Made by a program: the position numbers and the translations under genes
Part shown: positions 1,134-56,444 of the stretch, one piece after another
Numbering within the stretch: position 1 is the stretch's first letter
Layout: each line of letters opens with the position of its first letter
DNA from: Candidatus Woesearchaeota archaeon
GTDB taxonomy: Archaea; Nanobdellota; Nanobdellia; Woesearchaeales; SKIA01
Direction of reading: 5' to 3'
Assembly (NCBI GenBank): GCA_046704725.1
Contig: JBJKRI010000002.1
Span: forward strand, 18,285-82,284
DNA length: 64,000 nucleotides
The notes under the pieces: generated by a model
The model's database searches: none
Told to the model about the DNA's origin: nothing
Seen by the model: the letters and a program-made list of their open reading frames with translations, nothing else

Positions 1134-1196
1134 CCGTGGCTGTCCTGTGAGGACTTCCGAGATGCACGGAGGATTTCCGGAACGGGTGTTGATGGG
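1134..1196. promoter_or_regulatory. F1 upstream module copy 1 (about 55 bp conserved element with palindrome TTCCGGAA) upstream of mazEF on the minus strand
   Basis: Sequence ...ctgtcctgtgaggacttccgagatgcacggaggatttccggaacgg... is near-identical to copies at 1689, 17712 (reverse complement) and 19226 (reverse complement). Always about 60-150 bp upstream of a TA operon in the same relative orientation. Confidence 0.6.
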
Positions 1197-1635: not shown

Positions 1636-1688
1636 GGTCAGGTCCTCGCGGTAGATAAACCTACTGCATCCTGTTATACGTGCCTTGC

Positions 1689-1746
1689 GGCCGTGGCTGT
1701 CTTGTGAGGAATTCCGCGATGTACGGAGGATTTCCGGAACGGTGGG
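1689..1746. promoter_or_regulatory. F1 upstream module copy 2 (contains palindromes GGAATTCC and TTCCGGAA), upstream of the relBE-like operon 1635..1218
   Basis: ...gtcttgtgaggaattccgcgatgtacggaggatttccggaacgg...; same element as 1134, 17712, 19226. Confidence 0.6.
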
Positions 1747-3408: not shown

Positions 3409-5448
3409 GTGTCCTACAAAGACTTGGACCTGCAGAATCGACCAGGCAGTTTTGATTCGACTAGAGACAATCTTATTCGGGACTTTTATATTCCCTGCCT
3501 GAGCCAGGCGCAGAGATATCGTCGGGTGGCAGGATTCTTCAATTCAGCTTCTTTCTGGGCTGCGATTACAGGCATTAGGAGGCTCATCTCGAACGGCGGG
3601 AAGATCCAGTTGGTTTGTAATGTCCACGTCAACTCTCAAGATGTCAAAGATTTAGAGGTCTATGCCCGGCACATGCAGGAAGATTTCGTGGACAATGTGG
3701 ATGCTGATGATACCCAGTTGTCACTATTGGGCTACCTGCTGAAAGAACAGATACTGGAGATGAAAATCGCCATAGTACCCACAGGGATATTGCATTCTAA
3801 ATGGGGGATATTCACAGATTCAGAGGACAATCATATTCTCTTCACAGGTTCCGAGAATGAAACCTATTCCGGTTGGAGCAGACACAGCGAACGGTTCGAC
3901 ACGCATCTAAGCTGGATTGAAAGCGATTACAATAGGTTCGTGCAGCCAAGTCTAAATGACTGGGATGCGGTCTGGTATGATCGCGCCGAGAACGTTAAGG
4001 TAATCCCCGTCCTCGAAGCTCTCAAGCGGAAATTGATTCAGGTGGCTGCCGATGGTCCTCAACAAGCGACTCGCATTGACGAACGGCTGGAAAGAGAGGC
4101 GCTGCAAAAAATTAAGCTTGGACGCGAACTAGCAACAGAGCTAGTGAACGAGAAATTGAGACCTTACCAGCATGAGGCGGTCGTAGAATGGATGTTCAAT
4201 GAGCGAAATGGCCTCTTCCATATGGCTACCGGCACGGGAAAGACCATCGCTGCTAAAGCGTGTATCCGAGTCCACAGCAGTAGGACTAATGGCGTAGTCG
4301 TCGTTGCTGCGCCCACACAGCTTCTGGTTCGGCAGTGGGTGTCGAGCCTGAACAAGTCAGGCATCTATGACGTTATCGAGGTGATGGATTCTAAACATAA
4401 GTGGATTCAGAATCTCAGGACAAGAATACAACGCAGAAATATGGGCCTGGATGAGACGGTGGTGATTGTTGCAACCTACAAATCATTTAGTGATGATGAT
4501 TTCCAGACCATACTGCAAGATTCAGGCCAAGAAATCCTTCTAATCGCGGATGAGGTGCACCATTCTTGGACAAGAAGCGTAAGAAGGCATCTTGATTCGA
4601 AATTCAAGTTTCGACTGGGATTGTCGGCCACTCCCGAACTTTTTTTCGATAAGGACGGCACAAAAGCGATGCAGGACTACTTCGGCGGAGTGGTATTCCG
4701 TTTCGCGATATCAGATGCTATTCCGCAATACCTAAGCCGCTACGAGTATTATGTCCGGGTGGCTTTTCTGAGTCAGGAAGAACTCGAGAGATTTAGACGA
4801 CTCTCTGCTCGGATCGCCAGCATCATCAGCAGCAATAAAGGAAAAGTGGATAATCGCGTCCTAGCCCTGTTGATGAAGAGGGCGCGGCTGGTTTCGGGCA
4901 GTGAAAACAAGTTACCTGTTCTAGACTCTCTATTGGATGATTTGCGTCCGCTCAAGCGAACAATCGTCTATTGCTCGCCCCGGCAGATATCAGATATCAA
5001 AAGACTGTTGAGATCTAAAGATATCCGCGCTCACCAAATCACATATCAAGAGCCTTTGCAGCAGAGGAAGAGATTAATTCAGCAATTCCTTGACAAGAGA
5101 CTCGACGCCATCATCGCGATGAAAGTACTCGATGAAGGCATTGATGTGCCAGGCATCTGGTCAGGCATCATCTGCGCGAGCAGCTCTAATCCTAATGAAT
5201 ATGTGCAGAGGAGGGGGCGTATTCTGAGGAAGTCTGACGACTGTCCGCTTCCCTCTATTTATGATATACTCATTATCCCCCATGACAATTGGGACGAATA
5301 CTCTGATTCGGATACCCACCTCCTGAGAAAAGAGCTCAAGCGAATTGAGGAATTCGCTTCAACAGCGGAAAATGGCGACAAAGCTATAAACGAGTTACAT
5401 CCATTATTCAATGTACTGAAGCAAAATGGCGAGACGAAGAATCAATAG
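3409..5448 (+). CDS. PLD-family (HKD) nuclease fused to SF2 DExH helicase (ResIII-type); SauUSI-like without a C-terminal reader domain
   Basis: HKD motif ILHSKWGIFTDSEDNHILFTGSENE in the first about 200 aa. Helicase motifs MATGTGKT (I), DEVHH (II), SAT (III), QRRGRILR (VI). GTG start; 679 aa. Confidence 0.8.
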   Translation: MSYKDLDLQNRPGSFDSTRDNLIRDFYIPCLSQAQRYRRVAGFFNSASFWAAITGIRRLISNGGKIQLVCNVHVNSQDVKDLEVYARHMQEDFVDNVDADDTQLSLLGYLLKEQILEMKIAIVPTGILHSKWGIFTDSEDNHILFTGSENETYSGWSRHSERFDTHLSWIESDYNRFVQPSLNDWDAVWYDRAENVKVIPVLEALKRKLIQVAADGPQQATRIDERLEREALQKIKLGRELATELVNEKLRPYQHEAVVEWMFNERNGLFHMATGTGKTIAAKACIRVHSSRTNGVVVVAAPTQLLVRQWVSSLNKSGIYDVIEVMDSKHKWIQNLRTRIQRRNMGLDETVVIVATYKSFSDDDFQTILQDSGQEILLIADEVHHSWTRSVRRHLDSKFKFRLGLSATPELFFDKDGTKAMQDYFGGVVFRFAISDAIPQYLSRYEYYVRVAFLSQEELERFRRLSARIASIISSNKGKVDNRVLALLMKRARLVSGSENKLPVLDSLLDDLRPLKRTIVYCSPRQISDIKRLLRSKDIRAHQITYQEPLQQRKRLIQQFLDKRLDAIIAMKVLDEGIDVPGIWSGIICASSSNPNEYVQRRGRILRKSDDCPLPSIYDILIIPHDNWDEYSDSDTHLLRKELKRIEEFASTAENGDKAINELHPLFNVLKQNGETKNQ

Positions 5449-5604
5449 GATTATTCTTGAAAAGATTGATGTTCTAGACGACCGTAAGCTTAAAGCATTT
5501 CTTACAGAGGTGATTGATCATGAGTTGTCTAATCTCGAGAACAGCAAAACACGCTACAAGGACGAGTACCTAGATTTGCTTGATAGGGTGGTGAGGTCGA
5601 CCTG

Positions 5605-7605
5605 ATGTGGATTTCGAATGTGGGGATTAGGAATTTCCGTCCGTTTTGCGGAGGAGACGATTATTTAGAGATTGATCTCCCACCGAAGTCGGCGCGGGCA
5701 ATTACTGTGGTGAAGGCGAAGTCTGACGTGGGAAAGACCACCTTTCTTTCAGCAATCGCGTGGTGTCTCTATGGTCGAGAGACTTCAGAGAACAAGGATA
5801 AAGAGCTCCCTCCTTTTAGCACATCACGATTATACGCCATGGGCGAGAAGGATATAGACAGCATGGAGGTAAGCCTAACGTTAAATGATGATGAGTCGAA
5901 CCTGCCCATTTACACTATCAAGAGAAGCCAGAATTTTCAGAAGTATACGGGCGATGATTCCGCGAACCAGCTGATTTCTCTTGGAGAGAGCTCTCTCGAA
6001 GTTGCGGAATGGGACGAGAAGAACAACTTCTTAGTTATCCCCGATTCCAGTGCGCAGAGGGTGGTGAACGAAATTCTTCCTGAAGAAATCCACTTGTTCT
6101 TCCTTTTTGAGGGTGAGAAACTAGAGAGGCATTTTAGTTTCATAGAACCCGAGACTGTCAGAGGAGCTATTGAGCGGACTTCTCAAATCGAGCAAGTGCA
6201 TCGTGCGATACGCCATCTCAACTCCGTTAAGGATAGCGTTTGGGACGAGGATGATCCCCAACCAGAGATGAAGGCGTTGCGCGAAGAAATTGACGGTCTG
6301 CAAGGACTTAACGATCAGAACGAGAGGAAACGACAGGAGCAGGAGAAAGAGATATCAGGCATGAATTCAGAGATATCCGATATCGATTCTTTCCTCGGAA
6401 AGCATGACGAAGAAGCGATTCAACAACTGAGTCTTGAAGCGCAAAGTATTGAAAAAGATTTTCAGCGGGAACGGGAAAAGCTGCGAGGCCTGAAAACCTC
6501 GTGGTCGAAAGAGGTTCTGTACGCTGCACCGCCGGCGCTCGGAGCAAAGAGCCTGTCGGAACTCCATCAAGCGCTTATCAACGAGCGTGCCAAGGACGCG
6601 CTCCAACCAAATATTGACAGCAGATCTCTCATGGATCTTTTGGAGCATAATCGATGTGTCTGCGGCCGATCTCTCGATCCGAATAACAAAGCAGATGAGA
6701 AACACATAGCACTAATCAAAAAGAAGCTGGAAGCTAACAAGCTCGACGAAGCAAGCGAATTAATCCGGGAAGGAGTCTTTAAGATACAGTCGGCATGGGA
6801 AAAAGCTTTGGGCTCTTTCGAGACCATTGAGGAATTCCATGAACAAGTGAAGGAGAAGAAGAAATATTTGAGGGAGAAGGAGTCCCTCCTGCAGGAGAAA
6901 CAAGAGCGGCTAGTATCCTTAGGAGATAACGTTGTTGAGACGAAGCAACGCAGAAAAAACGAGCTGGAGATGGCGAGGAGACGGTTAGAGGAGAGCAATG
7001 CCCGCCTCAAGCTAGCGATGCAAAACCGGGGAGTCGAAATCGCGCAGAAAAGAAGAGACCTGGAAAGGAAAGGCAGAAAGCTCAAGGGATACGAATTGTC
7101 GAAGAAAAAAGCGGCATTTCTTGACTCCTCCCTCGAAGCGCTAGAAAATATCCGCGATAGCATCCTCAGCGAGGTTCGCCAGAAGGTTCAGCAAGAGACG
7201 TGGAAAAGCTTCTCTAATATCCATTGGCTCAAAGACAAATATACAGACTTCATCATTACGTCGGATTACGAGCTCCGCCTTTGTGACTCTCAAGGAAGTA
7301 ATTGGATAGCTAATCTGGCAGGAGGACCGAAACAGATTTTTCTGCTATCCTTTATCGCGGCTCTGAACAAGGTATCGGGCTTCAGGTTCCCAGTACTCAT
7401 AGATACGCCGATGGCAAATCTCGATCAACAGCAGAGATTGAATGTCGCCTCTTTGCTGCCCATGTATCTCAAAGACTCTCAGGTTATCATTCTTGTGAAG
7501 GATCAGGAATACGGAGAAGAAATCCGCAAGCTGATACTGCCCAGACTATCTGAGGAGTACGAGTTCCGGATTAATGACGGATGCACGAAGGTGATACGGT
7601 GCTGA
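5605..7605 (+). CDS. Rad50/SbcC/DndD-like ABC ATPase with coiled coil and CxxC zinc hook
   Basis: N-terminal Walker A KAKSDVGKTTFLSAIAWCLYG. Central RCVCGRSL hook flanked by long K/E-rich coiled coils. C-terminal signature LAGGPKQ plus Walker B FPVLIDTPMANLD. Confidence 0.8.
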   Translation: MWISNVGIRNFRPFCGGDDYLEIDLPPKSARAITVVKAKSDVGKTTFLSAIAWCLYGRETSENKDKELPPFSTSRLYAMGEKDIDSMEVSLTLNDDESNLPIYTIKRSQNFQKYTGDDSANQLISLGESSLEVAEWDEKNNFLVIPDSSAQRVVNEILPEEIHLFFLFEGEKLERHFSFIEPETVRGAIERTSQIEQVHRAIRHLNSVKDSVWDEDDPQPEMKALREEIDGLQGLNDQNERKRQEQEKEISGMNSEISDIDSFLGKHDEEAIQQLSLEAQSIEKDFQREREKLRGLKTSWSKEVLYAAPPALGAKSLSELHQALINERAKDALQPNIDSRSLMDLLEHNRCVCGRSLDPNNKADEKHIALIKKKLEANKLDEASELIREGVFKIQSAWEKALGSFETIEEFHEQVKEKKKYLREKESLLQEKQERLVSLGDNVVETKQRRKNELEMARRRLEESNARLKLAMQNRGVEIAQKRRDLERKGRKLKGYELSKKKAAFLDSSLEALENIRDSILSEVRQKVQQETWKSFSNIHWLKDKYTDFIITSDYELRLCDSQGSNWIANLAGGPKQIFLLSFIAALNKVSGFRFPVLIDTPMANLDQQQRLNVASLLPMYLKDSQVIILVKDQEYGEEIRKLILPRLSEEYEFRINDGCTKVIRC

Positions 7606-9033: not shown

Positions 9034-10731
9034 TTGATGGGGAGGGATGAGATGACGAGAAAGCGTCTGACCGTCGCGGATTTCTTCTGCGGCGCGGGCG
9101 GATGGAGCGAGGGATTCCGGCAGATGGGCTTCGAGATGCGTTTCGCGCTCGACCACTGGCAGCCGGCCGTGGATACCCACGAGCTAAACCATCCCGACTG
9201 CGAGACCGTCCGCATGGACATCCTCGAGCTCGACACCCCCGAGAGGATAGACGCGGTCGTCCCCGACACGGATATCATCGTCGGCTCTCCTCCGTGCGTC
9301 TCCTTCAGCCATTCCAACAACGCGGGCAAGGCCGACAAGTCGCTCGGCGTCCGCCTCATCGAATCCTACCTGCGCATCGTCCTGTGGAAGAAGAGCAAGG
9401 GCGTGCTCAAGCACTGGTGCATGGAGAACGTCCCGAACAGCGCCAAGTACACCAAGGACCGCTACACGTGGAAGGAGCTCGGGCTCCCGGGGAAGGGCCC
9501 CGACCTCGAGGTCCCCGTCCGAGAGTTCCTCGTGGCGGCCGACTTCGGCACGCCGCAGACGCGCAGGCGCTTCGTGTGCGGGGACTATCCGGTGCCGGAG
9601 AGGACGCACGACGAGGAGTCCTGGGTCACGATGCGCCACGTGCTCCGGTCGTTGGGCGAGCCGCTCGGGAAGCGCCCACGGACGGCGAAGGATCCGGTCT
9701 TCGGCTTCTCGCTCCCTGCCAAGCGCCTCACCGACCACTACTATGACACTCGCGTCGCGCCGTTCGAATGGGAGAAGGCCCGTCGCCAGAAGGAGGACCA
9801 CGGCTATATGGGCAGGATGTCCTTCCCCGAGAATCTTGACCGTCCCAGCAGGACGGTCATGGCGACGCGCTCGGCGAGCACGCGCGAGGCCATCATCCTC
9901 GGCGCGGGCACCGACGAGGATGGCGACCCTGTCTACCGGCTCCCGACCATCAGGGAGGTCGCGTGCTACATGTCGTTCCCCATCACCTACCAGTTCCAGG
10001 CGGACTCGGAATCCAACAAGTACCGTCTCGTCGGCAACGCCGTCTGCGTCGGCATGTCCCGGGCGATCGCGGCGGCGATGCTCGACGCGGAGGGGCGGCC
10101 GCGGCCCGAGGGTTTCATCGCGCAGGACATCGAGCCGCCGGGGACGGATCTCACCGGGCTGCGCAAGGAGATAAAGGAGCCGTCTCCCCGGAGGGCGGAC
10201 GCTCGTTTCAAGCGTCACGTGCCGTACCTGAAGGTCCGGAGCTTCCGCGTCGAACTCACGAACGAGCCTTCTGATTTCGACAAGGATTCCATCGTGTGGG
10301 ACGCCGTGCTTCACTACGGGAGCGGCAAGTCGGCGGAGGCCGTCAGTATCCCGTTGCAGTATGCGATGGCGCTCGCGAAGCAACTGCCGCAGTTCCCCGC
10401 GTTCCGTTCCGCCTTCTCTGATATCGTCGAGCAGTTGCCCGACGCGGAGGGTTTCCAGGATCTCTTCACGCAGCGGCTCCGTGGCGAGCGTCTCCTCTCG
10501 CCTTCGGAGGCATTGGAGGAGGTGCGCCGCCTCGTCGACGAGCATCTTCCCGAGGACCGCTTCGGGGATGTCGAGCTGAGGATCCCGCCGTCGTTCCGGC
10601 TGAGCCGCGGACGCATCCCCGGCCGTATCGCGTTCGCGCTCTTCGCTGTGCGTTCCATCGCCGACAAGGTCAATGGAAAAGCTTCACGGTCGGCCACGGC
10701 CCCGCAGCAGGCGGCCGTGCTCTCGGACTAG
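9034..10731 (+). CDS. DNA (cytosine-5)-methyltransferase with C-terminal extension
   Basis: Motif I DFFCGAGG, motif IV GSPPCVSFS, ENV motif (MENV). 565 aa. Confidence 0.85.
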   Translation: MMGRDEMTRKRLTVADFFCGAGGWSEGFRQMGFEMRFALDHWQPAVDTHELNHPDCETVRMDILELDTPERIDAVVPDTDIIVGSPPCVSFSHSNNAGKADKSLGVRLIESYLRIVLWKKSKGVLKHWCMENVPNSAKYTKDRYTWKELGLPGKGPDLEVPVREFLVAADFGTPQTRRRFVCGDYPVPERTHDEESWVTMRHVLRSLGEPLGKRPRTAKDPVFGFSLPAKRLTDHYYDTRVAPFEWEKARRQKEDHGYMGRMSFPENLDRPSRTVMATRSASTREAIILGAGTDEDGDPVYRLPTIREVACYMSFPITYQFQADSESNKYRLVGNAVCVGMSRAIAAAMLDAEGRPRPEGFIAQDIEPPGTDLTGLRKEIKEPSPRRADARFKRHVPYLKVRSFRVELTNEPSDFDKDSIVWDAVLHYGSGKSAEAVSIPLQYAMALAKQLPQFPAFRSAFSDIVEQLPDAEGFQDLFTQRLRGERLLSPSEALEEVRRLVDEHLPEDRFGDVELRIPPSFRLSRGRIPGRIAFALFAVRSIADKVNGKASRSATAPQQAAVLSD

Positions 10732-12074
10732 TCCGTCCTCGTGAACGCCCCGTGTATGACCTTTTTCAGATAGTCCGTCCGGATGAAGAACCCTTTCTTC
10801 ACGACCTCGATGCCTCCCGGGGCCTCGACAGTGTCATTGCCGTCGCTCGCTTTCGGGCGTGTCTGCAGTATCTCGCCCATCGCGCCGGTCAGCTTGTCGG
10901 CCTTCTTCGCCTTGACGAGCCGCTTCGCCTGCAGCCAGTCGCGCCGCATGGTATCGAGCGTCTCTGTGTTCGGACGATGGTAGATGATGGAGTGGAGTAT
11001 GGCCTTGCCTTGCGGCGCTCCGCGCTTCGGGAGCAGCAATATGACGAGCAGCATTCGTTGGACGTCCTCGAAGGCCTTCGAGTCCTCCCACTCGGTCGTG
11101 ATTATGTCGTTGTAGTCGAACCCTCGCAGGCTCATCGCATAGATGGGACGCAGTCCAGGGTTGCAGCGGACGGTCTTCACATTGATGCCCGATTCCAGCA
11201 GCTCCTTCGCGTGCTCCTCCCCCTTGCGCAATCCGAGTGCCCTATACACGACGCTCGCCGCATAGCTCTTCGCGCCGCGCGAGCTGTTCCCGCCGAACTC
11301 CTCGCGCAGCTCGTCGATGGTCTTCCCCCAATACTGCATGCTCTCGATGACGATGCGCGCCATCAGCTCCGAAGGGTCGTCGACGCGCAGCCTGGTCATG
11401 AGCGAGGCCTCCGTGCCGATCTCGGCGCGGGCACGCTTGAGTATGACGTCTAGCAGCGTCCGCCGGAGCGCGAACGCGCGCGACGGCGCTTCCACCGTTC
11501 GCTTCCCGTACCGCACCCGTCGCATCTCGCCTTTGGATCCTTTCCGGCGCGCGACGAGGAGGAGAGTGTCCGATTCGCTGATGGTGTCGGGCTCGCCCGC
11601 GACGACCTTCCGCTTGATCGACTCCCAGTCGTGCGCGAAGACTTTCCAGTCGTTCGCCGTCGGCGTCCAGAGCGTCGCGGTCTCGACGCGCGAGTCGAGG
11701 AAGTCGTCCGCTTCGCTGTAATAGATGATGAGCAGCCGCTCCATCTTCTTCCTGATCTTCGCGCCCGTCCATCTCTCCTTGCGGATGCTCTCGAAATCGA
11801 TCATGCCGAGCGTCAGGGGATACTTCGGGCCGCCGTGGCGGTTGAGAGGCGCGGTCTTGAGCTCCACTCCCGCCTTCGGGAAGTCGGGGCGGCTCTCGTT
11901 GTCGCGCTCCTTGCCCATGATACGCTCGATGATGTTCCCGACCCCGCTCTTCCCTTTCGGTCTCTTGAACGTGAGCCCTCGCTCGGCCGCTATCTGACCG
12001 ATGCTCTTGCCTTCGAGCGATTTCGCGAAAGCGAGGATGCTCTTCGGTTTGGAGTCGTCGAAGGATTGTCGCAT
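10728..12074 (-). CDS. Sau3AI-like (MutH-family) type II restriction endonuclease
   Basis: RPDFPKAGVELKTAPLNRHGGPKY resembles the Sau3AI/MutH N-terminal catalytic region. About 450 aa, similar in length to Sau3AI. Start set at an internal Met; the upstream part of the track ORF is low-complexity. Tail-to-tail with the C5 methyltransferase gene. Confidence 0.7.
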   Translation of the reverse strand: MRQSFDDSKPKSILAFAKSLEGKSIGQIAAERGLTFKRPKGKSGVGNIIERIMGKERDNESRPDFPKAGVELKTAPLNRHGGPKYPLTLGMIDFESIRKERWTGAKIRKKMERLLIIYYSEADDFLDSRVETATLWTPTANDWKVFAHDWESIKRKVVAGEPDTISESDTLLLVARRKGSKGEMRRVRYGKRTVEAPSRAFALRRTLLDVILKRARAEIGTEASLMTRLRVDDPSELMARIVIESMQYWGKTIDELREEFGGNSSRGAKSYAASVVYRALGLRKGEEHAKELLESGINVKTVRCNPGLRPIYAMSLRGFDYNDIITTEWEDSKAFEDVQRMLLVILLLPKRGAPQGKAILHSIIYHRPNTETLDTMRRDWLQAKRLVKAKKADKLTGAMGEILQTRPKASDGNDTVEAPGGIEVVKKGFFIRTDYLKKVIHGAFTRTD

Positions 12075-12405
12075 GCCAGAACCCGCTCCCCGCTCCCTAT
12101 TAATTGTTGCTCTTCTCCCCATCCCCTCACTCCCACACGCCTCCGTCCATTTCCCGTCCCTCGTCGACCGTGTCAGGGATTGCGCGCTCTCTTTCGATCG
12201 CGCCTTCATTTCGCTCCCCTGTACGCATTGACGTCGGTGAGCTGCTCGGCGCGGAGCTCGTTCTCGACGTGAACTCGCCCAATGCCTTGTCTTTCTCGGG
12301 TGCTGTCGTCTCCCCGGGCGGTACCGGTTTGCTCGTCCCGCATCACACCGTCGTCACGCCGGGCATCTGGCCCCGTCAGACCCTGGAGGAGCACGAGCGC
12401 GCTTT

Positions 12406-14848: not shown

Positions 14849-15241
14849 TCAATCGATGACAGTCACGCCGGCCTTCCCGAACTCCGCGTCGAAGGTCGCG
14901 ATCCGGTCAGCGCCGTGCGCTCTCATCTGCGCGAGCAGCACGGCGTCCGTGAAGGAGAATCTGTTCTTTCCCGTGAATATCCTCCACGCCTCCTCGAGCT
15001 CTTTCGCGTTCGTGAAGGCTATCGCCACGCTTGTCCGCCGCACCTCAGTCCCGGCGAGCACGGCCACGCGCTTGTTCACGCGCCGCGTCAGGACGTTGAG
15101 CAGCTCGTCGAAGACGTACTCGCTCATGATGATGTCGTCGTCCACGATGCGCGCGAGCACCGCGACCGCGCGCTCGTGCAGCGCATCGCGCGGGTTGAGG
15201 TAGGCGACGTACACGTTCGTGTCGATGAAGGTCCTAGCCAT
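14849..15241 (-). CDS. vapC: PIN-domain toxin
   Basis: MARTFIDTNVYVAY... carries the PIN N-terminal Asp; 130 aa. Confidence 0.75.
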   Translation of the reverse strand: MARTFIDTNVYVAYLNPRDALHERAVAVLARIVDDDIIMSEYVFDELLNVLTRRVNKRVAVLAGTEVRRTSVAIAFTNAKELEEAWRIFTGKNRFSFTDAVLLAQMRAHGADRIATFDAEFGKAGVTVID

Positions 15242-15458
15242 ACAGGGTCTCGTCGATCTCTTGGCTCAGGCGTTCTGTGCCCTTTCCGAAGTCGAAGGTC
15301 CGCATCCGCGTGATCGGGATGGTCTTTCCTTCCTGCTGGTCGAGCCACCCGCGCATCGCCTCGTTCATGGCTTGCCCCACGTTCTTGTCCCGCCGCGCGG
15401 CGGCGATCTTGAACTCCTTGAAGAGCGCGTCGTCCACATTCCGCACACTGATTGTCAT
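15234..15458 (-). CDS. vapB: VapB-type antitoxin
   Basis: MTISVRNVDDALFKEFKIAAARRD... Start moved to the internal Met; the track ORF extends into the P repeat. Confidence 0.55.
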   Translation of the reverse strand: MTISVRNVDDALFKEFKIAAARRDKNVGQAMNEAMRGWLDQQEGKTIPITRMRTFDFGKGTERLSQEIDETLYG

Positions 15459-15459
15459 A

Positions 15460-15522
15460 CAAGTAAACAAGTATACTTTCTTTATCAGTCTTGCGGCGCC
15501 AAGACCGGAAAACCGGGCGTTG
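15460..15522. promoter_or_regulatory. P upstream module copy b
   Basis: ...aagtatactttctttatcagtcttgcggcgccaagaccggaaaacc... Confidence 0.55.
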
Positions 15523-15537
15523 CGCATAGCTAGAGAC

Positions 15538-15894
15538 TCAGGGTATCGTCACAAGGCCGAGGCTCACGCGCAGCGCCTCGTCCAGTTCCAGCATCGTCTT
15601 GACTTCCCCGACCCGTTTCACCAGCCGCCTCTTGTCCACCGCGCGGATCTGGTTGCACAGCGCTTTGGAAGGCTGCGAGAGCCCGCTCTGTTTCCCGAGC
15701 GCGACATCCGTCGGGTGCAGCCGATCCACGTGCTTGGACGTCACCGGCGCGACGATCGTGGTGGGACTGTAGGCGTTACCGATATCGTTCTGGATCACCA
15801 CCGCGGGCCGGGCGTTGCGGATCTCGCTGCCGACGGTCGTGCCGAGATCCACGAGCCAGATCTCGCCGCGTCTCACAGCTCGAACGCGTCCCAC
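15538..15894 (-). CDS. mazF: MazF/PemK toxin
   Basis: ...GEIWLVDLGTTVGSEIRNARPAVVIQND... Confidence 0.75.
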   Translation of the reverse strand: MGRVRAVRRGEIWLVDLGTTVGSEIRNARPAVVIQNDIGNAYSPTTIVAPVTSKHVDRLHPTDVALGKQSGLSQPSKALCNQIRAVDKRRLVKRVGEVKTMLELDEALRVSLGLVTIP

Positions 15895-16079: not shown

Positions 16080-16142
16080 GGTATACCTAAAGTATACCTT
16101 CTTTATCTGTCTTGCGCCTTCCGTCCCGGAAAACCCAGTGAT
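16080..16142. promoter_or_regulatory. P upstream module copy c
   Basis: ...aagtataccttctttatctgtcttgcgccttccgtcccggaaaacc... Confidence 0.55.
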
Positions 16143-16946: not shown

Positions 16947-17003
16947 AGCGCCTGACGGTTCCCTCCCCGCAACCCTTAAAGACCCGCTCCCCCTCGTCCG
17001 TCC

Positions 17004-17711
17004 ATGCTCACGCTGTTCAACTCGCTCACCCGCAAGAAGGAGCCCTTCACCCCGCTCACCAAGGGCGAAGCGAGGTTCTACGCCTGCGGGCCCACCGTCT
17101 ACAACTACGCGCATCTCGGCAATCTCCGCGCCTTCTTGTTCGCCGACATCCTCCGCCGCGCATTGCAGTACGACGGCCTCAAGGTCAAGGAGGTCATGAA
17201 CCTCACCGACGTCGGGCACCTCACCGACGACGCTGACCAGGGCGAGGACAAGCTCGAGAAAGAAGCCAAGAAGGAGCACAAGTCCGCCTGGGATGTCGCG
17301 ACGTTCTACACCGAGGCGTTCCTCCATGATATCGACGCGCTCGATATCGAGCGCCCCGACGTCCTGCCCAAGGCGACCGACCATATCGCAGAGCAATGGA
17401 GCATGGTCGAGACCATCATGCGAAACGGCTATGCCTACGTCACCGCGGATGGCATCTACTTCGACACGTCCAAGCTCGATGACTACGGCAAGCTCATCCC
17501 CAACTTCGACCCATCCTCCCTAGAAGCGGGCAAGCGCGTCGACCTCGGCGGCAAGCGTCACCCGACCGACTTCGCCCTCTGGAAGTTCTCCCCTAAGGAT
17601 GAGAAGCGCCAGATGGAGTGGACCACGAGCATGGAGGTCGTGGTCGACGAGGCCATGGAAGAAGAGCTGCGCTCTATCGCGGGGAAGAACCCGCATGTGC
17701 GGATCGATTGA
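17004..17711 (+). CDS. cysS: cysteinyl-tRNA synthetase, N-terminal half (catalytic HIGH region through the ...DFALWKF... segment)
   Basis: [19 protein letters not shown] contains the HIGH motif and matches the CysS N-terminus through [18 protein letters not shown]. It then diverges into a 26-aa novel tail and stops. Confidence 0.85.
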
Positions 17712-17768
17712 AACGGGAAATCCTCCATAGCAACCGGAATTCCTCACAAGACATCCACGGCCGCAACG
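17712..17768. promoter_or_regulatory. F1 upstream module copy 3 (reverse orientation), upstream of the relBE cassette inserted in cysS
   Basis: aaacgggaaatcctccatagcaaccggaattcctcacaagacatccacggccgcaacg. Confidence 0.6.
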
Positions 17769-17812
17769 TATTTTGCCAATCGCAGGCTTGAAATACTTGG
17801 AGGCACTCTTCC

Positions 17813-18001
17813 ATGATTATGGACGCTGCGGAGATGGAAAAGCGGATACGGCGCTTGGAACGCGAGGTCGCAGACTTGCGCGCTTCGTCTGGAGAGCCGC
17901 TCACGCAAGACGAGCGTGAAGCCGTCGAGAGCTATCGCCGCGCGAAGAGCGAGGGAGAACTCATCCTCCACGAGCGAGTCTTGGAAGAATTCGGTCTGTG
18001 A
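17813..18001 (+). CDS. small antitoxin-like protein
   Basis: 62 aa, paralogous to 19327..19515 (both end in ...FGL or ...LGL). Overlaps the downstream RelE gene start. Confidence 0.5.
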   Translation: MIMDAAEMEKRIRRLEREVADLRASSGEPLTQDEREAVESYRRAKSEGELILHERVLEEFGL

Positions 18002-18258
18002 CCCGCACGCTGCTCTGGCAGCCCCGTGCGTTGCGGTATCTCCGGCGCATATCGAGAGTGAACGTGCGGTCGTTGCTGAGACGGGCGGAATCGCTGTGCG
18101 ACAATCCATTCCCGAAGGATGTGGAGCTCGTGCGGGGAGAGAAGGGGCTGTACCGTACGCGTGTCGGCGGATATCGAATTCTCTACACGTTCAATGAGCT
18201 TTCTGTCGATGTCGTGAATGTTGATAAACGCGGGCGCGTCTACAAGAGGAGAAGATGA
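17998..18258 (+). CDS. RelE/ParE family toxin
   Basis: ...GGYRILYTFNELSVDVVNVDKRGRVYKRRR; paralogous to 19512..19766. Confidence 0.7.
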   Translation: MTRTLLWQPRALRYLRRISRVNVRSLLRRAESLCDNPFPKDVELVRGEKGLYRTRVGGYRILYTFNELSVDVVNVDKRGRVYKRRR

Positions 18259-18284
18259 CGATATACCCAGCAAAGAGGGCTCTT

Positions 18285-18348
18285 GGTACGGAACGATCCG
18301 GAACCTCAAGGGAGCCACAGAACTCTGCCTGGAGGATCTTCCAGCGCC
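18285..18348 (+). pseudogene. hicB-like C-terminal fragment remnant
   Basis: Translated RNLKGATELCLEDLP versus HicB RNLKEATELYLAEFP; there is no full ORF. Confidence 0.3.
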
Positions 18349-18417
18349 CCACCGTGAATACCTGCAGTGTGGATATCCGACCGCACGGCTTTTATACCTT
18401 CGTCGCTCCGCACACGC

Positions 18418-19227
18418 ATGAAGAAGGTCAAGCTCACCGTCACGGGCTTTCCCGGCTGGCACCTCGAGTGCACGGCCATGGGCGTCAAGTACCTGGGAGA
18501 GACCTTCGACATCCACACGGGCGGCATCGACCACATCCCCGTCCACCACACCAACGAGCTCGCCCAGGCGGAGGCGGCCTTCGGCCACGACCACGCCCGC
18601 GTCTGGATGCACAACGAGTTCCTCCTGGACGAGACGGGCAAGATGGCCAAGAGCAAGGGCGATTTCCTGCGCCTGCAGACACTCATCGACAAGGGCTACG
18701 ACCCCCTCGACTACCGCTACTTCCTCCTCCTCACGCACTACCGTAAACCCGTCACCTTCACCTGGGAAGCCTTGGATGCCGCCGCGAAAGCGAGAAAGCG
18801 CCTCACCGACAAGGCCATCGAGCTCAAGAGGACCGTCTATGGAGGCGACACCGCTGCTGCCCCCTCGTCCCCCCATCCCTCCAAGGAACGCATGGCGTTC
18901 CAGGCCCGCTTCGCGCAGGCCATCAACGACGACCTCAACACCCCGCAGGCATTGGCCGTCGTCCACGACATGATCAAGAGCGATCTTGCCGGCACGGAGA
19001 AGCTCTCCCTCCTCCTCGACTGGGACCAGGTCCTCGGATTGCGCCTCAAGCAGGCGGAGCGTTCCGGAGAGGATGTCCCCGAAGACATCCAGCGCTTGGT
19101 GGATGAACGAGAGGCTGCACGCAAGGACAAGGACTGGAAGCGCTCCGACGCTCTGCGCGACGAGCTCGAGGAGAAGGGCTGGCAGGTCAATGACACGCCC
19201 GAAGGCCCCGTCCCCGAACGGCTCTGA
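18418..19227 (+). CDS. cysS: cysteinyl-tRNA synthetase, C-terminal half (GFPGWHLEC region, KMSKS as KMAKSKG, anticodon-binding domain)
   Basis: MKKVKLTVTGFPGWHLECTAMGVKYLGETFDIHTGGIDHIPVHHTNELAQ...KMAKSKGDF. Own ATG, with a TTTTATACC box about 25 bp upstream. Confidence 0.85.
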   Translation: MKKVKLTVTGFPGWHLECTAMGVKYLGETFDIHTGGIDHIPVHHTNELAQAEAAFGHDHARVWMHNEFLLDETGKMAKSKGDFLRLQTLIDKGYDPLDYRYFLLLTHYRKPVTFTWEALDAAAKARKRLTDKAIELKRTVYGGDTAAAPSSPHPSKERMAFQARFAQAINDDLNTPQALAVVHDMIKSDLAGTEKLSLLLDWDQVLGLRLKQAERSGEDVPEDIQRLVDEREAARKDKDWKRSDALRDELEEKGWQVNDTPEGPVPERL

Positions 19228-19284
19228 ACCGGAAATCCTCCGTCCGTTCCGGAACTTCTCACAAGACACGCACGCCCCAAAGCT
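19226..19284. promoter_or_regulatory. F1 upstream module copy 4 (reverse orientation; contains the 10-bp palindrome GTTCCGGAAC)
   Basis: aaccggaaatcctccgtccgttccggaacttctcacaagacacgcacg. Confidence 0.6.
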
Positions 19285-19326
19285 TCTTGCCGTTCCGTAA
19301 CCCTTATAGTCGCGGAGGACTCCCGT

Positions 19327-19515
19327 ATGGACATAGTGGAGAACGGTATCCCTGAACGCGTCGACCGCATCGAGCGCCGCTTGGACGAGCTCGAGAAGCG
19401 AGCGGACGAGACCGCGGATGCCGCCGACCGCGAGGCGATCGCCGCGTACGAGCGTGAGAAAGCGCGCGGCACGCTCGTCCCTGATGCCAAGCTCAAACGA
19501 GAGCTTGGTCTGTGA
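19327..19515 (+). CDS. small antitoxin-like protein (paralog of 17813..18001)
   Basis: 62 aa; a TTATAG box lies about 20 bp upstream. Confidence 0.5.
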   Translation: MDIVENGIPERVDRIERRLDELEKRADETADAADREAIAAYEREKARGTLVPDAKLKRELGL

Positions 19516-19766
19516 GTAGAGAGATTCGCTACTCGAACCAGGCTTACATCTTCTTGCGCCGCCTGCGCACCCCGCTCGCCAAGACCCTTCGCCGTCGCAT
19601 CCTCGCGTTGGAAAGACAGCCCTTTCCGCGTGGCGTCCGGATGCTGCAAGGGACAGGAGGCATGCTCCGCATACGCAGCGGCGATCATCGTATCCTGTAC
19701 ACCGTCTCGGACCGCCACGTCGACATCGTGCGCATAGACAAGAGAGGCCGCGTCTACAAGCGCTGA
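19512..19766 (+). CDS. RelE/ParE family toxin (paralog of 17998..18258)
   Basis: ...GDHRILYTVSDRHVDIVRIDKRGRVYKR. Confidence 0.7.
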   Translation: MSREIRYSNQAYIFLRRLRTPLAKTLRRRILALERQPFPRGVRMLQGTGGMLRIRSGDHRILYTVSDRHVDIVRIDKRGRVYKR

Positions 19767-20186: not shown

Positions 20187-23100
20187 TCAGCCGAAGATGC
20201 TTCCGAGCCAGCTGAGGATGCGTTGCAGCAGGTTCTGATTCTGCTGCAGTTGTTGTTGCAGGTCCACGCATTGTCCGTTGCTGCATTGGTTGCTCAGGCA
20301 CTCGAAGTTGTTCTCGCAGCTCGCGTTGAGCGATTTTTGCTGTTCGAGCGTCTTTTGCAGTCCGCAGTACTCGCTCACGCCGTTCTGCTTGACGCGCGTG
20401 CCGATTGGGTAGCACAGGTTGTCCGACGTGCATCCCGGACAGCTGTTGGCCGTTCCGGAGGTGCCGGTCTGCGTGCCCGTGCCGGTCTGCCCGGAGGTAC
20501 TGCCTGTGCTCGGGGTCGACGGGATAGAAGGCGCGCTCGGCAGAGTCACGTTCGCCGCGACGGCGGTGCAGCCGGTCGTGTCAGCGCTGTTCCCGTTCGA
20601 CCACGCGGTGAGCATGGTCTTGAGCTGCGATGCGGGCATGCTGCATCGCATCTGTGATTGCATGCTCTGCAATGCGCTCTGGGCCGCTTGCGATTCCTGC
20701 TGGGCGATCTCCGTGTCCGTGTATCCCTGGTCGCGCAACGACTGCTTGAGGGCGTCGCTATACGTGACGCTCTCGACCGAGACGTCGTGCAGCGTGAGCA
20801 CGCAGTCGCTGCCGTTCTTCCCGACGATGCTACCGATCTCCTTCACCTTGGTGATGACGCCGAACAGGTTGTACGTGGTCTCGATGTTCGCGTTGGTCGG
20901 CGTGCACTGCGGCGCGGCATCGATGAGGCACGAGTAGCCCGTACAGCCCGGATTCTGTGTGGTCGTCGACGTGAACGCGCCGTTGCGGATGTTGTACGCG
21001 TTGTCGATGGCCCAGCTGTCTCCGGGTCCGAGCACGTTGCTCACCTTGCCGTTCACGAGCAGCTTGACGTTGCTGCCGCTCTGGACGAGATTGGTCACCT
21101 GGTAGGTGCCGCCGACGACTTTGAGCGTCTTGGTCTGTTGCGGACCGAGCATGGTGCTCACCGCGCAGGTTCCGGGCGTGTTCCAGATGCAGATGGTCGG
21201 GAACGGCACGATAGTTGTGTTTCCTGGGTTTGGGTTCGTGCTTCCGTTATCCATAGGAGTCACTTGCTGGAGCCGGAAACTCGTGGCGCCATTCGCCCCG
21301 ATGGACCACCAGCCGCCGGGCTGCAGGGCGCTCCCTGTCTGTCCGTTCACCTGGAAGACGTCGCCGTCGGTCATGTGCGCGGCGTACGTGACCGTGAACT
21401 GCTGTCCTTCCGCGGTGTACGTCTTGGTCTGGTGCAGCGCGAGCGTGTCGGTCACGTCGCAGGCGCTGGTCGGATCGCTCGAGCCGATGCAGAACTGCGC
21501 GATCGCGTTCCCGACGCTCGGCGGCGGGATGTCCGTGGTGTCGATCGACAGTATCTTGATGTCGTAGTTGTCGCCGATACCCATCTCGTCTCCCTGGTGC
21601 AGGTTGAAGTTCGAGACGCCGTTCGCGGTGAGTCCGGTGTGGATGGAGTCCGCGGACAGGATGTGCACGCCGATCGTCTGCTGGTTGTCCACCGTGTATG
21701 TCTTCGACATGGTGGGTTGGAGCGTGTCGGTGACGGTGCACACGCCGGCGCTGTTCTTGAGGCAGAACTCGACGATGTAGTACTGTCCATTGCTTGTTGT
21801 GGTGCCTGATCCTGCCGATCCATTGGGTGCCGCGAGGCATGCGCCATCGCTGCAGCCGTTCGTGCAGTTATGGAAGGCCTGTTGGAGGAAACCTGCTTGG
21901 CAGTAGACCTCGACCATGGCAGGGCCGCTGCTCACGACGCTGCCTTGCGAAGACGCTTGTGTGAGGCATGCGTCGTTGCCGACCATCTGGGGCTGTTGTG
22001 GGGACCAGTACCCGACCGCTTGTCCCTTGACGGCGTAATTGATGCCGCCGTCCGAGTCGGTGCAGCCGATCTGCGCGGTCGTCGTGCTGAGGGACTTCAT
22101 GATGATGGAGAGTCCGGGAGCGAAAGTCCAGCTCCCGCCCTCAGCTATGCCGGGACCTTGCTGTCCGTCGACGGAGAAGACTGCTCCTTGCGTGCCTCGA
22201 CCGACGAACAATACTGTGTAATCCTTCCCATTCACAGGGTCGGTGTGCGTCTGCCCCGCGGTGAGCGTATCCGTGAATGCGCAGCCTGTGCTGCCTGAAC
22301 GTATGCAGAAGCTCGCGACTGGGGTCGTTCCGGTGCTTCCCGTATTCGTGCTCGGGGCGCCGTTACGTAGCGTGTAACTGCTGTCCAGCGCCGTGCTCGA
22401 ACCAACGCTCAGCGGCTGGCTGTACTGGCCGTTGATGAGGAAGATGGTTCCTGCGTCCGTCTGCATCATGTACTTGACATCGTACAATCTCCCGCCGAGA
22501 TGCATTGTCGTCGTCTGCTGCGGGCTGAGCGTCGTGCCGTATACGCACGTCTGCGGGTCGGTGTTCTCCGTCGCGCATATCGTCGCAGGGGTCTGCGTGT
22601 CGTGCGAGACATCGTTCACACGGATGCCCAGCGTGCCGACCATTCCGCTCTGGCCCGCGGACAGGAGCGGGCCTTGCACGCCGTTCACGCGGAGGCTCGC
22701 TTGGCTGTTCTCGATGCCGGTGACCGTGACATCAAATTGCGCGCCGTTCAAGGTATAGGTCTTCGTCTGTCCTTCGAAAAGTGTGTCGTTGAGGGGGCAG
22801 GTGCCGGCTGTCGTGTACATGCAGAACTGCACGCCGAGCTCAGAGTTGGTCCCGCCGGGCGTGTATGCTGCGTCGATCGTCTGCTGGAACGTCGAGTATG
22901 GCTGCGCGCCCGAGATCTTCTGTCCGTTGATGAAGAATTCAGGTACTCCTTTCACGCTGTTCGTGGTACCGTCGTGCATGTCTGTCGCGAGCGATTGGTT
23001 CGCCGCTCCCAGGTCGCAGCCCGGCGACGAGGTGATCGTGTAATCGTTCACGAAGATGTTGTGCAGGTTCGTGTAGCCCACGCTTTCGGCGAAGCCGCAT

Positions 23101-23396
23101 TCCACCATCAACGATTCGTGCGTATCGCCCGGGTATTGGCCCTCGAGCGGGAACATGTGGACCACGAGCTTGGCCTTGCCGGTCGCGATGTAGTTGTCCG
23201 CGATCTGGGGCAGCGTGTCCGTCCACCATTGCTTGACGAACGGGCTTTGCGTATCGATGTATGCTTCTATCGTGACAGGAGCGCTCGCGCTCCCGATGGT
23301 GTTGCCGTTCTGGGGCAACTGGTATGGGTCCGTGGCGTGCGCGGCCCCGACGAGCGCGAGGGCGAGCAGCACTGCCATGATGAGTGCGTATTTCAT
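20187..23396 (-). CDS. large secreted or surface protein (1069 aa), signal peptide, T/S/G/N/Q-rich, Cys-rich C-terminus
   Basis: N-terminal MKYALIMAVLLALALVGAAHA signal peptide. Low-complexity beta-rich body with many NxS/T sequons. C-terminal Cys cluster. Confidence 0.65.
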   Translation of the reverse strand: MKYALIMAVLLALALVGAAHATDPYQLPQNGNTIGSASAPVTIEAYIDTQSPFVKQWWTDTLPQIADNYIATGKAKLVVHMFPLEGQYPGDTHESLMVECGFAESVGYTNLHNIFVNDYTITSSPGCDLGAANQSLATDMHDGTTNSVKGVPEFFINGQKISGAQPYSTFQQTIDAAYTPGGTNSELGVQFCMYTTAGTCPLNDTLFEGQTKTYTLNGAQFDVTVTGIENSQASLRVNGVQGPLLSAGQSGMVGTLGIRVNDVSHDTQTPATICATENTDPQTCVYGTTLSPQQTTTMHLGGRLYDVKYMMQTDAGTIFLINGQYSQPLSVGSSTALDSSYTLRNGAPSTNTGSTGTTPVASFCIRSGSTGCAFTDTLTAGQTHTDPVNGKDYTVLFVGRGTQGAVFSVDGQQGPGIAEGGSWTFAPGLSIIMKSLSTTTAQIGCTDSDGGINYAVKGQAVGYWSPQQPQMVGNDACLTQASSQGSVVSSGPAMVEVYCQAGFLQQAFHNCTNGCSDGACLAAPNGSAGSGTTTSNGQYYIVEFCLKNSAGVCTVTDTLQPTMSKTYTVDNQQTIGVHILSADSIHTGLTANGVSNFNLHQGDEMGIGDNYDIKILSIDTTDIPPPSVGNAIAQFCIGSSDPTSACDVTDTLALHQTKTYTAEGQQFTVTYAAHMTDGDVFQVNGQTGSALQPGGWWSIGANGATSFRLQQVTPMDNGSTNPNPGNTTIVPFPTICIWNTPGTCAVSTMLGPQQTKTLKVVGGTYQVTNLVQSGSNVKLLVNGKVSNVLGPGDSWAIDNAYNIRNGAFTSTTTQNPGCTGYSCLIDAAPQCTPTNANIETTYNLFGVITKVKEIGSIVGKNGSDCVLTLHDVSVESVTYSDALKQSLRDQGYTDTEIAQQESQAAQSALQSMQSQMRCSMPASQLKTMLTAWSNGNSADTTGCTAVAANVTLPSAPSIPSTPSTGSTSGQTGTGTQTGTSGTANSCPGCTSDNLCYPIGTRVKQNGVSEYCGLQKTLEQQKSLNASCENNFECLSNQCSNGQCVDLQQQLQQNQNLLQRILSWLGSIFG

Positions 23397-40894: not shown

Positions 40895-41161
40895 TGCCGA
40901 TCACCTGTCGGGGCGAGAGTCATGCCATATATAAGTGTTCTCGCAGGGACTTTTTCGGTCTTTCCAACTATTCGGTCCGTATCATACAAGAAAGTGTATG
41001 GCGCAAGCCCATGCGCAAACGAGCCCCTGTATACTTCGACAATCCTTTGAAGCGGCCGTATTCTGACTGTCCGTACAGTAGGTTTATAAGCGAATATGAC
41101 TTCCCGGCCCAAACGGTGTGACCACTCGCCGGTTGCGTGGGTTGCATTGGGGGAATGGTTC

Positions 41162-55940: not shown

Positions 55941-56392
55941 AGCGCGAGGCTCAGGACGTACAAGATGATGCCGATGGGCACGAGTATCCAGTACTCGCGC
56001 GGCGCGATCCCCCACCATTCCGTGTGCCAGGGGATGCGCTCTTTCTTGAACCGCTTGATCCCGTAGGCTGGATTGAGGACGAACCACAAGAAGTCCTCCA
56101 CCGTCCAGAGCAGGAGCACGAAGGCGATGATGCGCAGCTCGAGCGTGACGCTGAACGCCTCTCCCAGGAGGAACGGGACGTTGAGCAATGTCAGCAAGAG
56201 CAGGTTCAGGAAGAAGTGGTATCCTGTGAGGGCCTTCCCGTTGTTGAATATGCGCGTCCAGCGGTTCTCCACGCGCCAGGTCGGCAGCTCCGCGGCCCAT
56301 CCCGACCTCCCCTCGATCTGTATCTCGAGCAGGGCGAGCACGGTCGCGGCCACGAGCACCGCGACGACGAACAGGACGATCGCGAGTATCAC
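55937..56392 (-). CDS. hypothetical polytopic membrane protein
   Basis: 151 aa with 4 predicted transmembrane segments. Confidence 0.4.
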   Translation of the reverse strand: MILAIVLFVVAVLVAATVLALLEIQIEGRSGWAAELPTWRVENRWTRIFNNGKALTGYHFFLNLLLLTLLNVPFLLGEAFSVTLELRIIAFVLLLWTVEDFLWFVLNPAYGIKRFKKERIPWHTEWWGIAPREYWILVPIGIILYVLSLAL

Positions 56393-56444
56393 AGTGCTTC
56401 CACCGCGCGAGCCTTTTTATATGAATCTGTCGTCACGCCCGATT

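Follow-up and report, generated by a model that had tools for sequence, protein, structure and literature searches.

A cysteinyl-tRNA synthetase gene split into two conserved halves in a Woesearchaeota archaeon, with a likely origin in a mobile endonuclease element

In phage Aeh1, the gene nrdA for an essential enzyme is split at a conserved active-site region by the free-standing endonuclease gene mobE (nrdA-a/mobE/nrdA-b; Friedrich et al. 2007; PMC3045599). The catalytic residues are divided between two polypeptides, there is an overlap between the endonuclease gene and one of the host halves, GC is lower in the insert than in the host gene, and the tails that came with the insertion are required for activity (Crona et al. 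2011, PMC3045599). The same order of N-piece, endonuclease and C-piece is known from fractured genes, in which a split intein is combined with a free-standing Vsr-like (EDxHD) endonuclease (Dassa et al. 2009, PMC2677866; I-Bth0305I, PMC3239194). Aminoacyl-tRNA synthetases (aaRS) are also known in naturally split form, namely the alpha-beta LeuRS of Aquifex aeolicus (PMC3643597), the AlaRS alpha/beta of Nanoarchaeum equitans (PMC11392972, PMC3655853) and the PheRS-beta gene pheT of Altiarchaeales (PMC4975002). No published split cysteinyl-tRNA synthetase (CysRS) was found in the literature searched, an absence that holds for that literature only. Here I describe a stretch of 64,000 nucleotides from a Candidatus Woesearchaeota archaeon (contig JBJKRI010000002.1, positions 18,285 to 82,284 of the forward strand; hereafter the window), in which the CysRS gene, cysS, is present as two halves, and I compare this locus with the systems above.

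The halves of cysS are two same-strand open reading frames (ORFs) at 17004..17711 and 18418..19227, separated by 706 bp and lying in different frames (features are on the + strand of the window unless marked otherwise). The N-half encodes 235 amino acids and matches Pfam tRNA-synt_1e (PF01406) over positions 2-181 of 301 (E=4.6e-43), while the C-half encodes 269 amino acids and matches positions 187-300 of the same 301, followed by DALR_2 (PF09190) and CysS_C (PF23493); both halves score far above the Pfam cutoff for PF01406. Compared with solved structures, the N-half corresponds to residues 25-229 and the C-half to residues 234-496 of the Borrelia CysRS (3sp1), and to residues 1-192 and 201-456, respectively, of the E. 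coli CysRS (1li5), with PDB matches at E=2e-42 and 2.5e-48 for the two halves. Combined, they make up a complete CysRS minus a (D)SPWGx loop of 4-6 residues. CysRS is typically a single chain with a W-(D)SPWG-xG loop; in the window, a C-terminal tail of the N-half and an N-terminal head of the C-half occupy the position of this loop. The original prediction for this locus, of a cysS in two independently initiated halves around a toxin-antitoxin (TA) pair, agrees with the ORFs and with the Pfam and PDB coverage. With intact relatives as tblastn queries, no cysS pieces beyond the two halves were found in the window. Between the N-half core and the corresponding N-terminal parts of intact relatives, the identity is 62-68%.

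This core (residues 1-206, 17004..17621) consists of the first Rossmann half and the connective-polypeptide (CP) domain and ends in ...KRQMEW; the C-half core (18445..19227) consists of the second Rossmann half, the DALR anticodon-binding domain and CysS_C. The catalytic and zinc residues, which are invariant alignment columns, are all present and are divided between the halves. The zinc ligand Cys28 (17085-17087) and the HIGH-type motif HLGN (17112-17123) are in the N-half, and the zinc Cys of GFPGWHLEC (18469-18471), HHTNE and the KMSKS-type motif KMAKS (18640-18654) are in the C-half. The ligands of the zinc/cysteine site of CysRS are taken here to be C28, C209, H234 and E238 in E. coli numbering. 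Neither half contains a stop or a frameshift.

The same break was found in many independent assemblies of homologous contigs, which the original prediction had named as a place to look. In nine loci from different projects the cysS halves are separate same-strand genes. In seven of these (L002, L005, L087, L088, L090, L091 and L092) the gap is filled by a single gene, here called X; the gap of L001 contains two small ORFs and a methyltransferase gene, and that of L089 a gene of 475 aa on the opposite strand. The break is accompanied by a homologous tail and head in L001, all seven X-bearing loci and 12 N-half clusters. As the gaps of L001 and L089 hold different genes, the TA cassette of the window is not a conserved part of the arrangement, and the earlier suggestion that it is maintained inside the break does not hold, most family members having a nuclease gene there. 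Two wide scans of genomes and metagenomes, with the N-half or its alignment as query, gave no split cysS among the matches listed (at least 160 loci, all intact), the closest relatives among those matches being 62-68% identical. An exact look-up of the N-half gave no entry.

X encodes a protein of 270-410 aa and overlaps one cysS half with its start and the other with its stop. The family consists of 114 clusters that carry the names Nanoarchaeota, Pacearchaeota and Woesearchaeota, in addition to one 694,748-bp record labelled Nealsonbacteria, and X was located inside the cysS break in all seven contexts examined. Four invariant N-terminal cysteines (a zinc-finger) precede helical repeats and a C-terminal PD-(D/E)XK domain, of which the PD...E.K motif (P209, D210, E221 and K223) is invariant in 35 sequences. 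The protein matches Pfam Phage_endo_I (PF05367, T7 endonuclease I-like) with 33.3 and 30.3 bits at a cutoff of 29.1. Its AlphaFold2 (AF2) model (predicted local distance difference test, pLDDT, 88) has the catalytic domain of I-Bth0305I as nearest PDB fold (3r3p; E ~5e-3, template-modelling (TM) score 0.65-0.67 normalised to target), followed by Vsr (1vsr). The EDxHD motif is not evident in the X sequences that were read, for which no formal motif search was made. X was also considered as a member of NUMOD3, for which there was no Pfam match. In the record labelled Candidatus Nealsonbacteria (L092, CP179891.1), a gene of the TFIIB family (Zn_Ribbon_TF + TFIIB; 1225-2127, - strand) adjoins the split cysS and the other neighbours, DnaX and DnaB, are of bacterial kind. 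Either a genome of the candidate phyla radiation (CPR) carries an archaeal-type gene here, or the record is mislabelled or chimeric.

The two peptides at the junction set the split alleles apart from intact ones, in which a counterpart of tail and head is absent. The tail of the window N-half, which the original prediction described as 26 residues without homology, is actually 29 aa long plus a stop (17622..17711; residues 17622..17708) and is conserved in the split cysS family. In profile-profile comparisons (hhalign) it aligns without gaps to its last residue with the tails of 12 other split N-halves, with a common KNPx[VI]RI motif, and a search with the N-half gave proteins of 233-245 aa that align across 99-100% of the query, tail included. 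Split N-halves end in ...QMEW, a short strand, SDEEYxxLxxxSxKNPxIxILEVxDV and a stop, and the window tail is in register with this ending. An AF2 model of the N-half family has a helix at tail residues 216-228 (pLDDT ~82); the alternating-hydrophobic stretches that flank it, and also the head, look like strands as far as the sequence suggests. I did not use a MAFFT alignment of intact proteins and halves (A6), as it misplaced the tails. A representative search with the N-half profile at 50% clustering merged the split proteins into intact clusters, and only P0160 and the intact P0186 reach into the tail.

The head of the C-half, MKKVKLTVT (9 aa, 18418..18444), is a conserved start, with MKKVRISFC, MKRVKVNFK, MKKVKVRLR, MKKVKINFR and MKKTLTVK preceding GFPGWH in relatives. 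The public gene call P0383 begins at the same ATG, and the in-frame GTG at 18367 is an unlikely start. Nearly all split alleles have a head of 9 aa, exactly the length of the native segment M-EWDSPWGx, which starts at the Met of QMEW and runs up to the Gly of GFPGWH; this may be due to a structural constraint on length or to a diverged target-site duplication. Several apparent C-halves that start with MEWDSPWG (P0412, P0461, P0478 and others) were rejected as split alleles: P0478 is a truncation at a contig end, the gene lying 83 nt from that end, and the others presumably are the same.

Two intact genes carry unusual sequence at the break site. P0186 is an intact CysRS of 516 aa in which W often stands in place of an expected G (its genome recodes UGA and was translated with the wrong code), and it has an insertion of ~47 aa at the break site that resembles a tail, a Met and an 8-aa head in frame (ALIVSDDFNKDTFLESSNYQGSLRIIKRSE-M-IEEEINQH-GFP). 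It may be a gene that was re-fused after the loss of X, or an ancestral insertion that was never split. In the intact cysS of a Candidatus Pacearchaeota (L076:5613-5630), EW-SAFMKM-GFPGWH replaces EW-DSPWGx-GFPGWH, and the alleles closest to this gene are split, their tails beginning with AF... and their heads with MK.... This junction may be the scar of an element deletion, in which case the SPWG loop would be dispensable.

When L002, a split locus, is compared with four intact relatives, DNA homology runs up to the final base of the EW codon and restarts at the first base of GFPGWH, with 939 bp in place of 18 bp. In each of the six complete loci with X, the GC of tail, X and head is below that of the cysS cores, for example 0.28, 0.37 and 0.26, respectively, versus 0.52 and 0.47 for the cores of L088. 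The GC of the window tail equals that of its core (0.61), i.e. the tail is fully ameliorated. In a neighbour-joining tree (55 sequences, 460 columns, 100 bootstraps) split and intact alleles interleave, and the split alleles are monophyletic in 0/100 bootstraps. The split P0033 groups with the intact L016 (87/100; 84% identical over the N part), the window with L001 (92/100), and the window clade with 13 intact alleles of the canonical form MEW-DSPWGxG-FPGWH (86/100). A replaced loop cannot easily revert, and repeated invasion of intact genes by one element carrying tail and head is the simplest account of this pattern; a homing endonuclease gene, which X may be, would behave in this way.

The same observations bear on the idea that both the split and X go far back and were passed on vertically, with X a domesticated third partner such as a nucleic-acid-binding subunit, and with the patchy distribution caused by operon transfer and replacement by intact genes. 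X has indeed been seen in the cysS locus only (7/7), its members are 37-65% identical, its stop/start overlaps with both halves are as in a co-translated operon, and it was not found on viral contigs. However, the window clade does without X and still has its split enzyme under selection, the nuclease motif is invariant and the nearest fold is that of a characterised homing endonuclease. The foreign composition of tail, X and head in 6/6 loci and the 84% identity of a split and an intact allele also speak against domestication, which I consider rather improbable.

The split gene itself shows signs of being maintained. Between the window and L001, the proportion of nonsynonymous differences (pN) is 0.215 for the N core and 0.194 for the C half, at saturated synonymous differences (pS 0.78-0.81); the tail, at pN 0.56, is looser than the cores. 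The GC content at third codon positions (GC3) is 0.87 in both halves, like the host. As both loci share the split without X, their divergence post-dates the split, and the conservation of tail and head at the same position across the family indicates that the break is old. The junction ends had been described as adapted rather than freshly broken, and this is supported by the recurrence of tail and head in the split family and by purifying selection on both halves. The conserved C-half start, a TATA-like box upstream of it and the shared break would likewise fit the predicted stable synthetase of two independently initiated polypeptides.

The original prediction also offered the alternative that cysS is a pseudogene and that Cys-tRNA is made by another route. 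In this case the insertion of the TA pair would have broken the gene recently, and a second cysS or SepRS/SepCysS elsewhere would supply Cys-tRNA. The break does contain a TA cassette that looks mobile and comes with a repeated module of 45 nt, the conserved SPWG loop is missing, and the genome beyond the window is unseen. However, break point, tail and head are common to distant lineages that have no TA cassette there, the reading frames are free of stops and frameshifts and keep all catalytic residues, pN since L001 is ~0.2 against saturated pS, GC3 is host-like, and the start codon of the C-half is conserved and preceded by a promoter-like box. A pseudogene therefore is very unlikely, and I hold it to be very likely that the split cysS is functional. 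Two contigs or strains wrongly joined at the TA cassette, in assembly or binning, would be another trivial cause, as the source is of metagenome type, with P0001 and P0383 on one 84,341-bp NCBI contig, and the junction has a 45-nt module that is repeated. However, the same break is present in an independent JGI assembly (L001, a 65-70% identical relative) and in eight further loci from different projects and assemblers, and GC and GC3 are uniform across both halves; an artefact is highly improbable.

In the model that I propose, subunit alpha (235 aa) would contribute the first Rossmann half, one zinc ligand and the CP domain, and subunit beta (269 aa) the three other zinc ligands, the KMSKS motif and the anticodon-binding domains. 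As the active site is composite, alpha and beta would have to associate non-covalently. The junction module that replaces the native DSPWGx loop, i.e. the alpha tail (strand-helix-strand, a proposed assembly module from the inserted element) and the 9-residue beta head (its proposed beta-strand partner), may aid this association. Each half is predicted to be transcribed from its own TATA-like box ~25 nt before the ATG, and read-through across the TA pair is also possible, since all four genes are on one strand. As to origin, an element consisting of a tail with stop, the zinc-finger PD-(D/E)XK gene X and a start with head would have entered between ...EW and GFPGWH, replacing 18 bp, and would have spread through the cysS genes of DPANN archaea and CPR bacteria, probably by homing. 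The window lineage, in which I infer a former presence of X, would have lost it later, leaving the split fixed, and the gap would then have been colonised by one of the modular ParE/RelE cassettes of the genome, a passenger incidental to CysRS function.

The combined account, of a functional and anciently split two-subunit CysRS that was broken by a homing-endonuclease-type element, later lost X and had its gap colonised by a TA pair, appears quite probable from the sequences, and the mobile-endonuclease origin of the split, taken by itself, likely. To a further proposition I would give an even chance, namely that a self-contained gene-splitting cassette with its own complementation peptides has homed through the cysS of numerous DPANN archaea and of one CPR bacterium or more. 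The window would then be an end state, with no nuclease left, an irreversible and ameliorated split, and a gap into which new genes such as TA cassettes can enter. The predicted stably split CysRS stands insofar as the split appears functional and old; what had been missed is that it belongs to a widespread family, most likely made by a mobile endonuclease.

Some observations weigh against this account. A profile hidden Markov model of the tail only, built from other family members, scores the window tail at E=0.19 and that of P0002 at E=0.16. No X or remnant of X was found in the window, L001 or L089, X was not found on viral contigs and was never seen outside cysS, the tree was made by neighbour-joining on 460 columns, and with 64 kb of the genome visible, a second cysS or a SepRS/SepCysS route could lie elsewhere. 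Several of these points would suit a functional split by ordinary fission or insertion in the window lineage, unrelated to the X element, the likeness of tail and head being convergent. The window clade also nests among intact alleles, apart from the X-bearing ones, and the intact enzymes P0217, P0190 and P0186 tolerate insertions at this site. Nevertheless, the break point is identical to the codon, the MKKVK head has the same 9-aa length as in X-linked members, and the hhalign tails are free of gaps and share the KNPx[VI]RI motif. In addition, the tail of P0003, a member of the window clade, matches the same tail-only profile of X-linked members at E=6e-4. An unrelated fission with convergent junction peptides seems unlikely on this evidence, and the split as the remnant of an X-bearing element is preferred.

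Compared with Aeh1, the window likewise has an exact break at a critical site and junction tails that appear derived from an insert, but its gap contains no nuclease gene and holds a TA cassette instead. MobE is of the HNH type, whereas X is a zinc-finger PD-(D/E)XK protein. Split cysS occurs in cells (DPANN archaea and a CPR-labelled bacterium) and concerns an enzyme of translation, and more than 100 lineages are involved versus one phage. With the fractured genes, the cysS loci share the gene order, and the catalytic domain of I-Bth0305I (PMC3239194) is the nearest solved fold to the nuclease domain of X. Unlike them, they lack intein motifs, which precludes ligation of the halves, X has a PD...E.K motif and a Phage_endo_I match, and the hosts are cells, where those of the fractured genes are mainly phages.

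As free-standing endonucleases between split-intein halves do exist (PMC2677866), it might be thought that tail and head are themselves the halves of a split intein, or of some splicing or bypass device, that regenerates a covalent CysRS. However, tail (26-45 aa) and head (9 aa) are far below intein size, amounting to 38 aa in the window. The first tail residue is variable (T/E/D/A/N) and never a conserved Cys or Ser, no His-Asn precedes the GFPGWH extein, of which the +1 residue is Gly, and a stretch of 706 nt with two genes separates the window halves, which also differ in frame. This makes such a device extremely improbable.

The naturally split LeuRS, AlaRS and PheRS resemble the split CysRS in that an essential aaRS comes from two genes, with products that are thought or shown to reassemble, and several of them occur in reduced or DPANN-type genomes. 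They differ in that the CysRS is cut at the end of the CP domain between the Rossmann halves, which divides the zinc site, and in that the cysS split is polyphyletic and not a clade marker, is linked to a nuclease and has dedicated junction peptides. Class I halves can reportedly reassemble non-covalently into an active enzyme, as Shiba and Schimmel are said to have found in 1992 with IleRS cut in or near CP1. Such engineered cuts had no added interaction peptides, whereas the cysS split is natural and conserved.

The 706-bp gap of the window contains, in this order, a 45-nt two-box module, a 62-aa ORF, an 86-aa toxin gene, a 130-nt spacer and a TATA-like box. The toxin (17998..18258) belongs to the ParE/RelE superfamily (PF05016, E=6.4e-8, 33.5 bits at a cutoff of 23) and is 43% identical to a paralogue at 19512..19766. 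The ORF before it (17813..18001), which overlaps the toxin start by 4 nt, has no Pfam family and is a putative antitoxin by position only; of the claimed antitoxin and RelE toxin genes, only the latter is thus supported by family. The small upstream ORF that overlaps an 86-aa PF05016 toxin is as in type II ParE/RelE cassettes, from which the pair differs by an antitoxin without family and by an upstream module that is common to MazF-type and other cassettes in the same genome. The spacer (18259..18388) is without assignment of origin. It had been read as a hicB fragment, a reading with which the lack of any Pfam match for the ORF 18218..18421, even at E<=10, does not agree, and no repeat of it was found elsewhere in the window.

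The module (17714..17760), which has two GGAAWTCC boxes 21 nt apart, had been named a promoter/operator module, and it is real as a repeated element: GGAAWTCCTC-N7-11-GGAANTYCTCAC occurs exactly four times in the window, with 0 expected, and each time upstream of a TA-like pair. The copies (CCGGAAATCCTCC-N9-CGGAAnTCCTCACAAGACAnCCACGG, with near-palindromic boxes) are at 1134-1178 (-), 1685-1735 (-), 17714-17760 (+) and 19229-19275 (+), 50-100 nt upstream of four different pairs: two of ParE/RelE with a coiled-coil ORF, one of a RelE-like toxin with a 63-aa ORF, and one of a MazF-like toxin with an AbrB-like ORF. Unrelated antitoxins would not use one operator; the module may be a cassette boundary, a recombination site or the site of a common regulator. 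The last copy opens a region (19229..19766) directly after the C-half stop with a paralogous antitoxin-like/ParE pair (19327..19515 and 19512..19766).

A TATA-like box about 25 bp before the second-half ATG had also been claimed, and CTTTTATAC (18389-18397) is indeed centred 25 nt before 18418, which implies, from position and composition, a candidate leaderless-type promoter for the C-half. A/T-rich boxes 25-30 nt before the ATG are common in this window of 60% GC (GlyRS at 52024, ValRS at 56445, a 1069-aa gene at 23396 and others), and as the spacing is the same before such well-supported genes, the box of the C-half fits the start pattern of the genome. A second TATA-like box, TTGAAATA (17788-17795), is upstream of the 62-aa ORF. 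A third and weak one, CCTTAAAG (16974..16981), lies ~26 nt upstream of the N-half ATG; with 6/8 A/T it falls short of the 7/8 A/T threshold set for the genome pattern, while its spacing agrees.

Elsewhere in the window, a second repeated intergenic module of 46 nt, with 80% identity between the copies at 15469-15514 and 16090-16135 (AAGTATAC[TC]TTCTTTATC.GTCTTGCG...CCGGAAAACC), adjoins small minus-strand ORFs, one MazF/PemK-like of 118 aa (15538..15894) and one of 97 aa (15234..15527). A defence island at 3409-7605 and 10728-12209 encodes a phospholipase-D/helicase protein (Dnd component TIGR04095, below cutoff), a DndD-like ATPase and an endonuclease of the Sau3AI/MutH family, an unusual cargo for a small DPANN-type genome. 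A 3137-aa ORF (41096-50509, +) and a Cys-rich, repeat-containing and secreted-looking protein of 1069 aa (20187-23396, -), both close to cysS, may be DPANN-style surface or host-interaction proteins. The ValRS ORF (56073-58847, +) shows homology only from residue 125 of the longest ORF, and a TATA-like CTTTTTATATGAAT lies 25 nt before the ATG at 56445; on both grounds this ATG is probably the true start. The window also carries archaeal genes for the RFC large subunit and a FlaI-type ATPase.

In surveys of metagenome-assembled genomes from DPANN and CPR lineages, a split cysS will score as missing, duplicated or partial, both for completeness and for metabolism. If the halves do reassemble, the product would be a heterodimeric class I synthetase that is cut between its Rossmann halves, with the zinc site across two chains, and a natural counterpart of fragment complementation; it bears on how little covalent continuity an aaRS needs, and the tail and head would be a candidate pair for an orthogonal protein-assembly tag. 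If the proposed origin is true, such a cassette would add to introns and inteins a third means by which a mobile endonuclease can sit in an essential gene without effect on fitness. It would be the first widespread cellular case, with more than 100 natural variants at different stages, from the intact target to the split gene with nuclease, the split gene that has lost its nuclease and possibly the gene that is re-fused.

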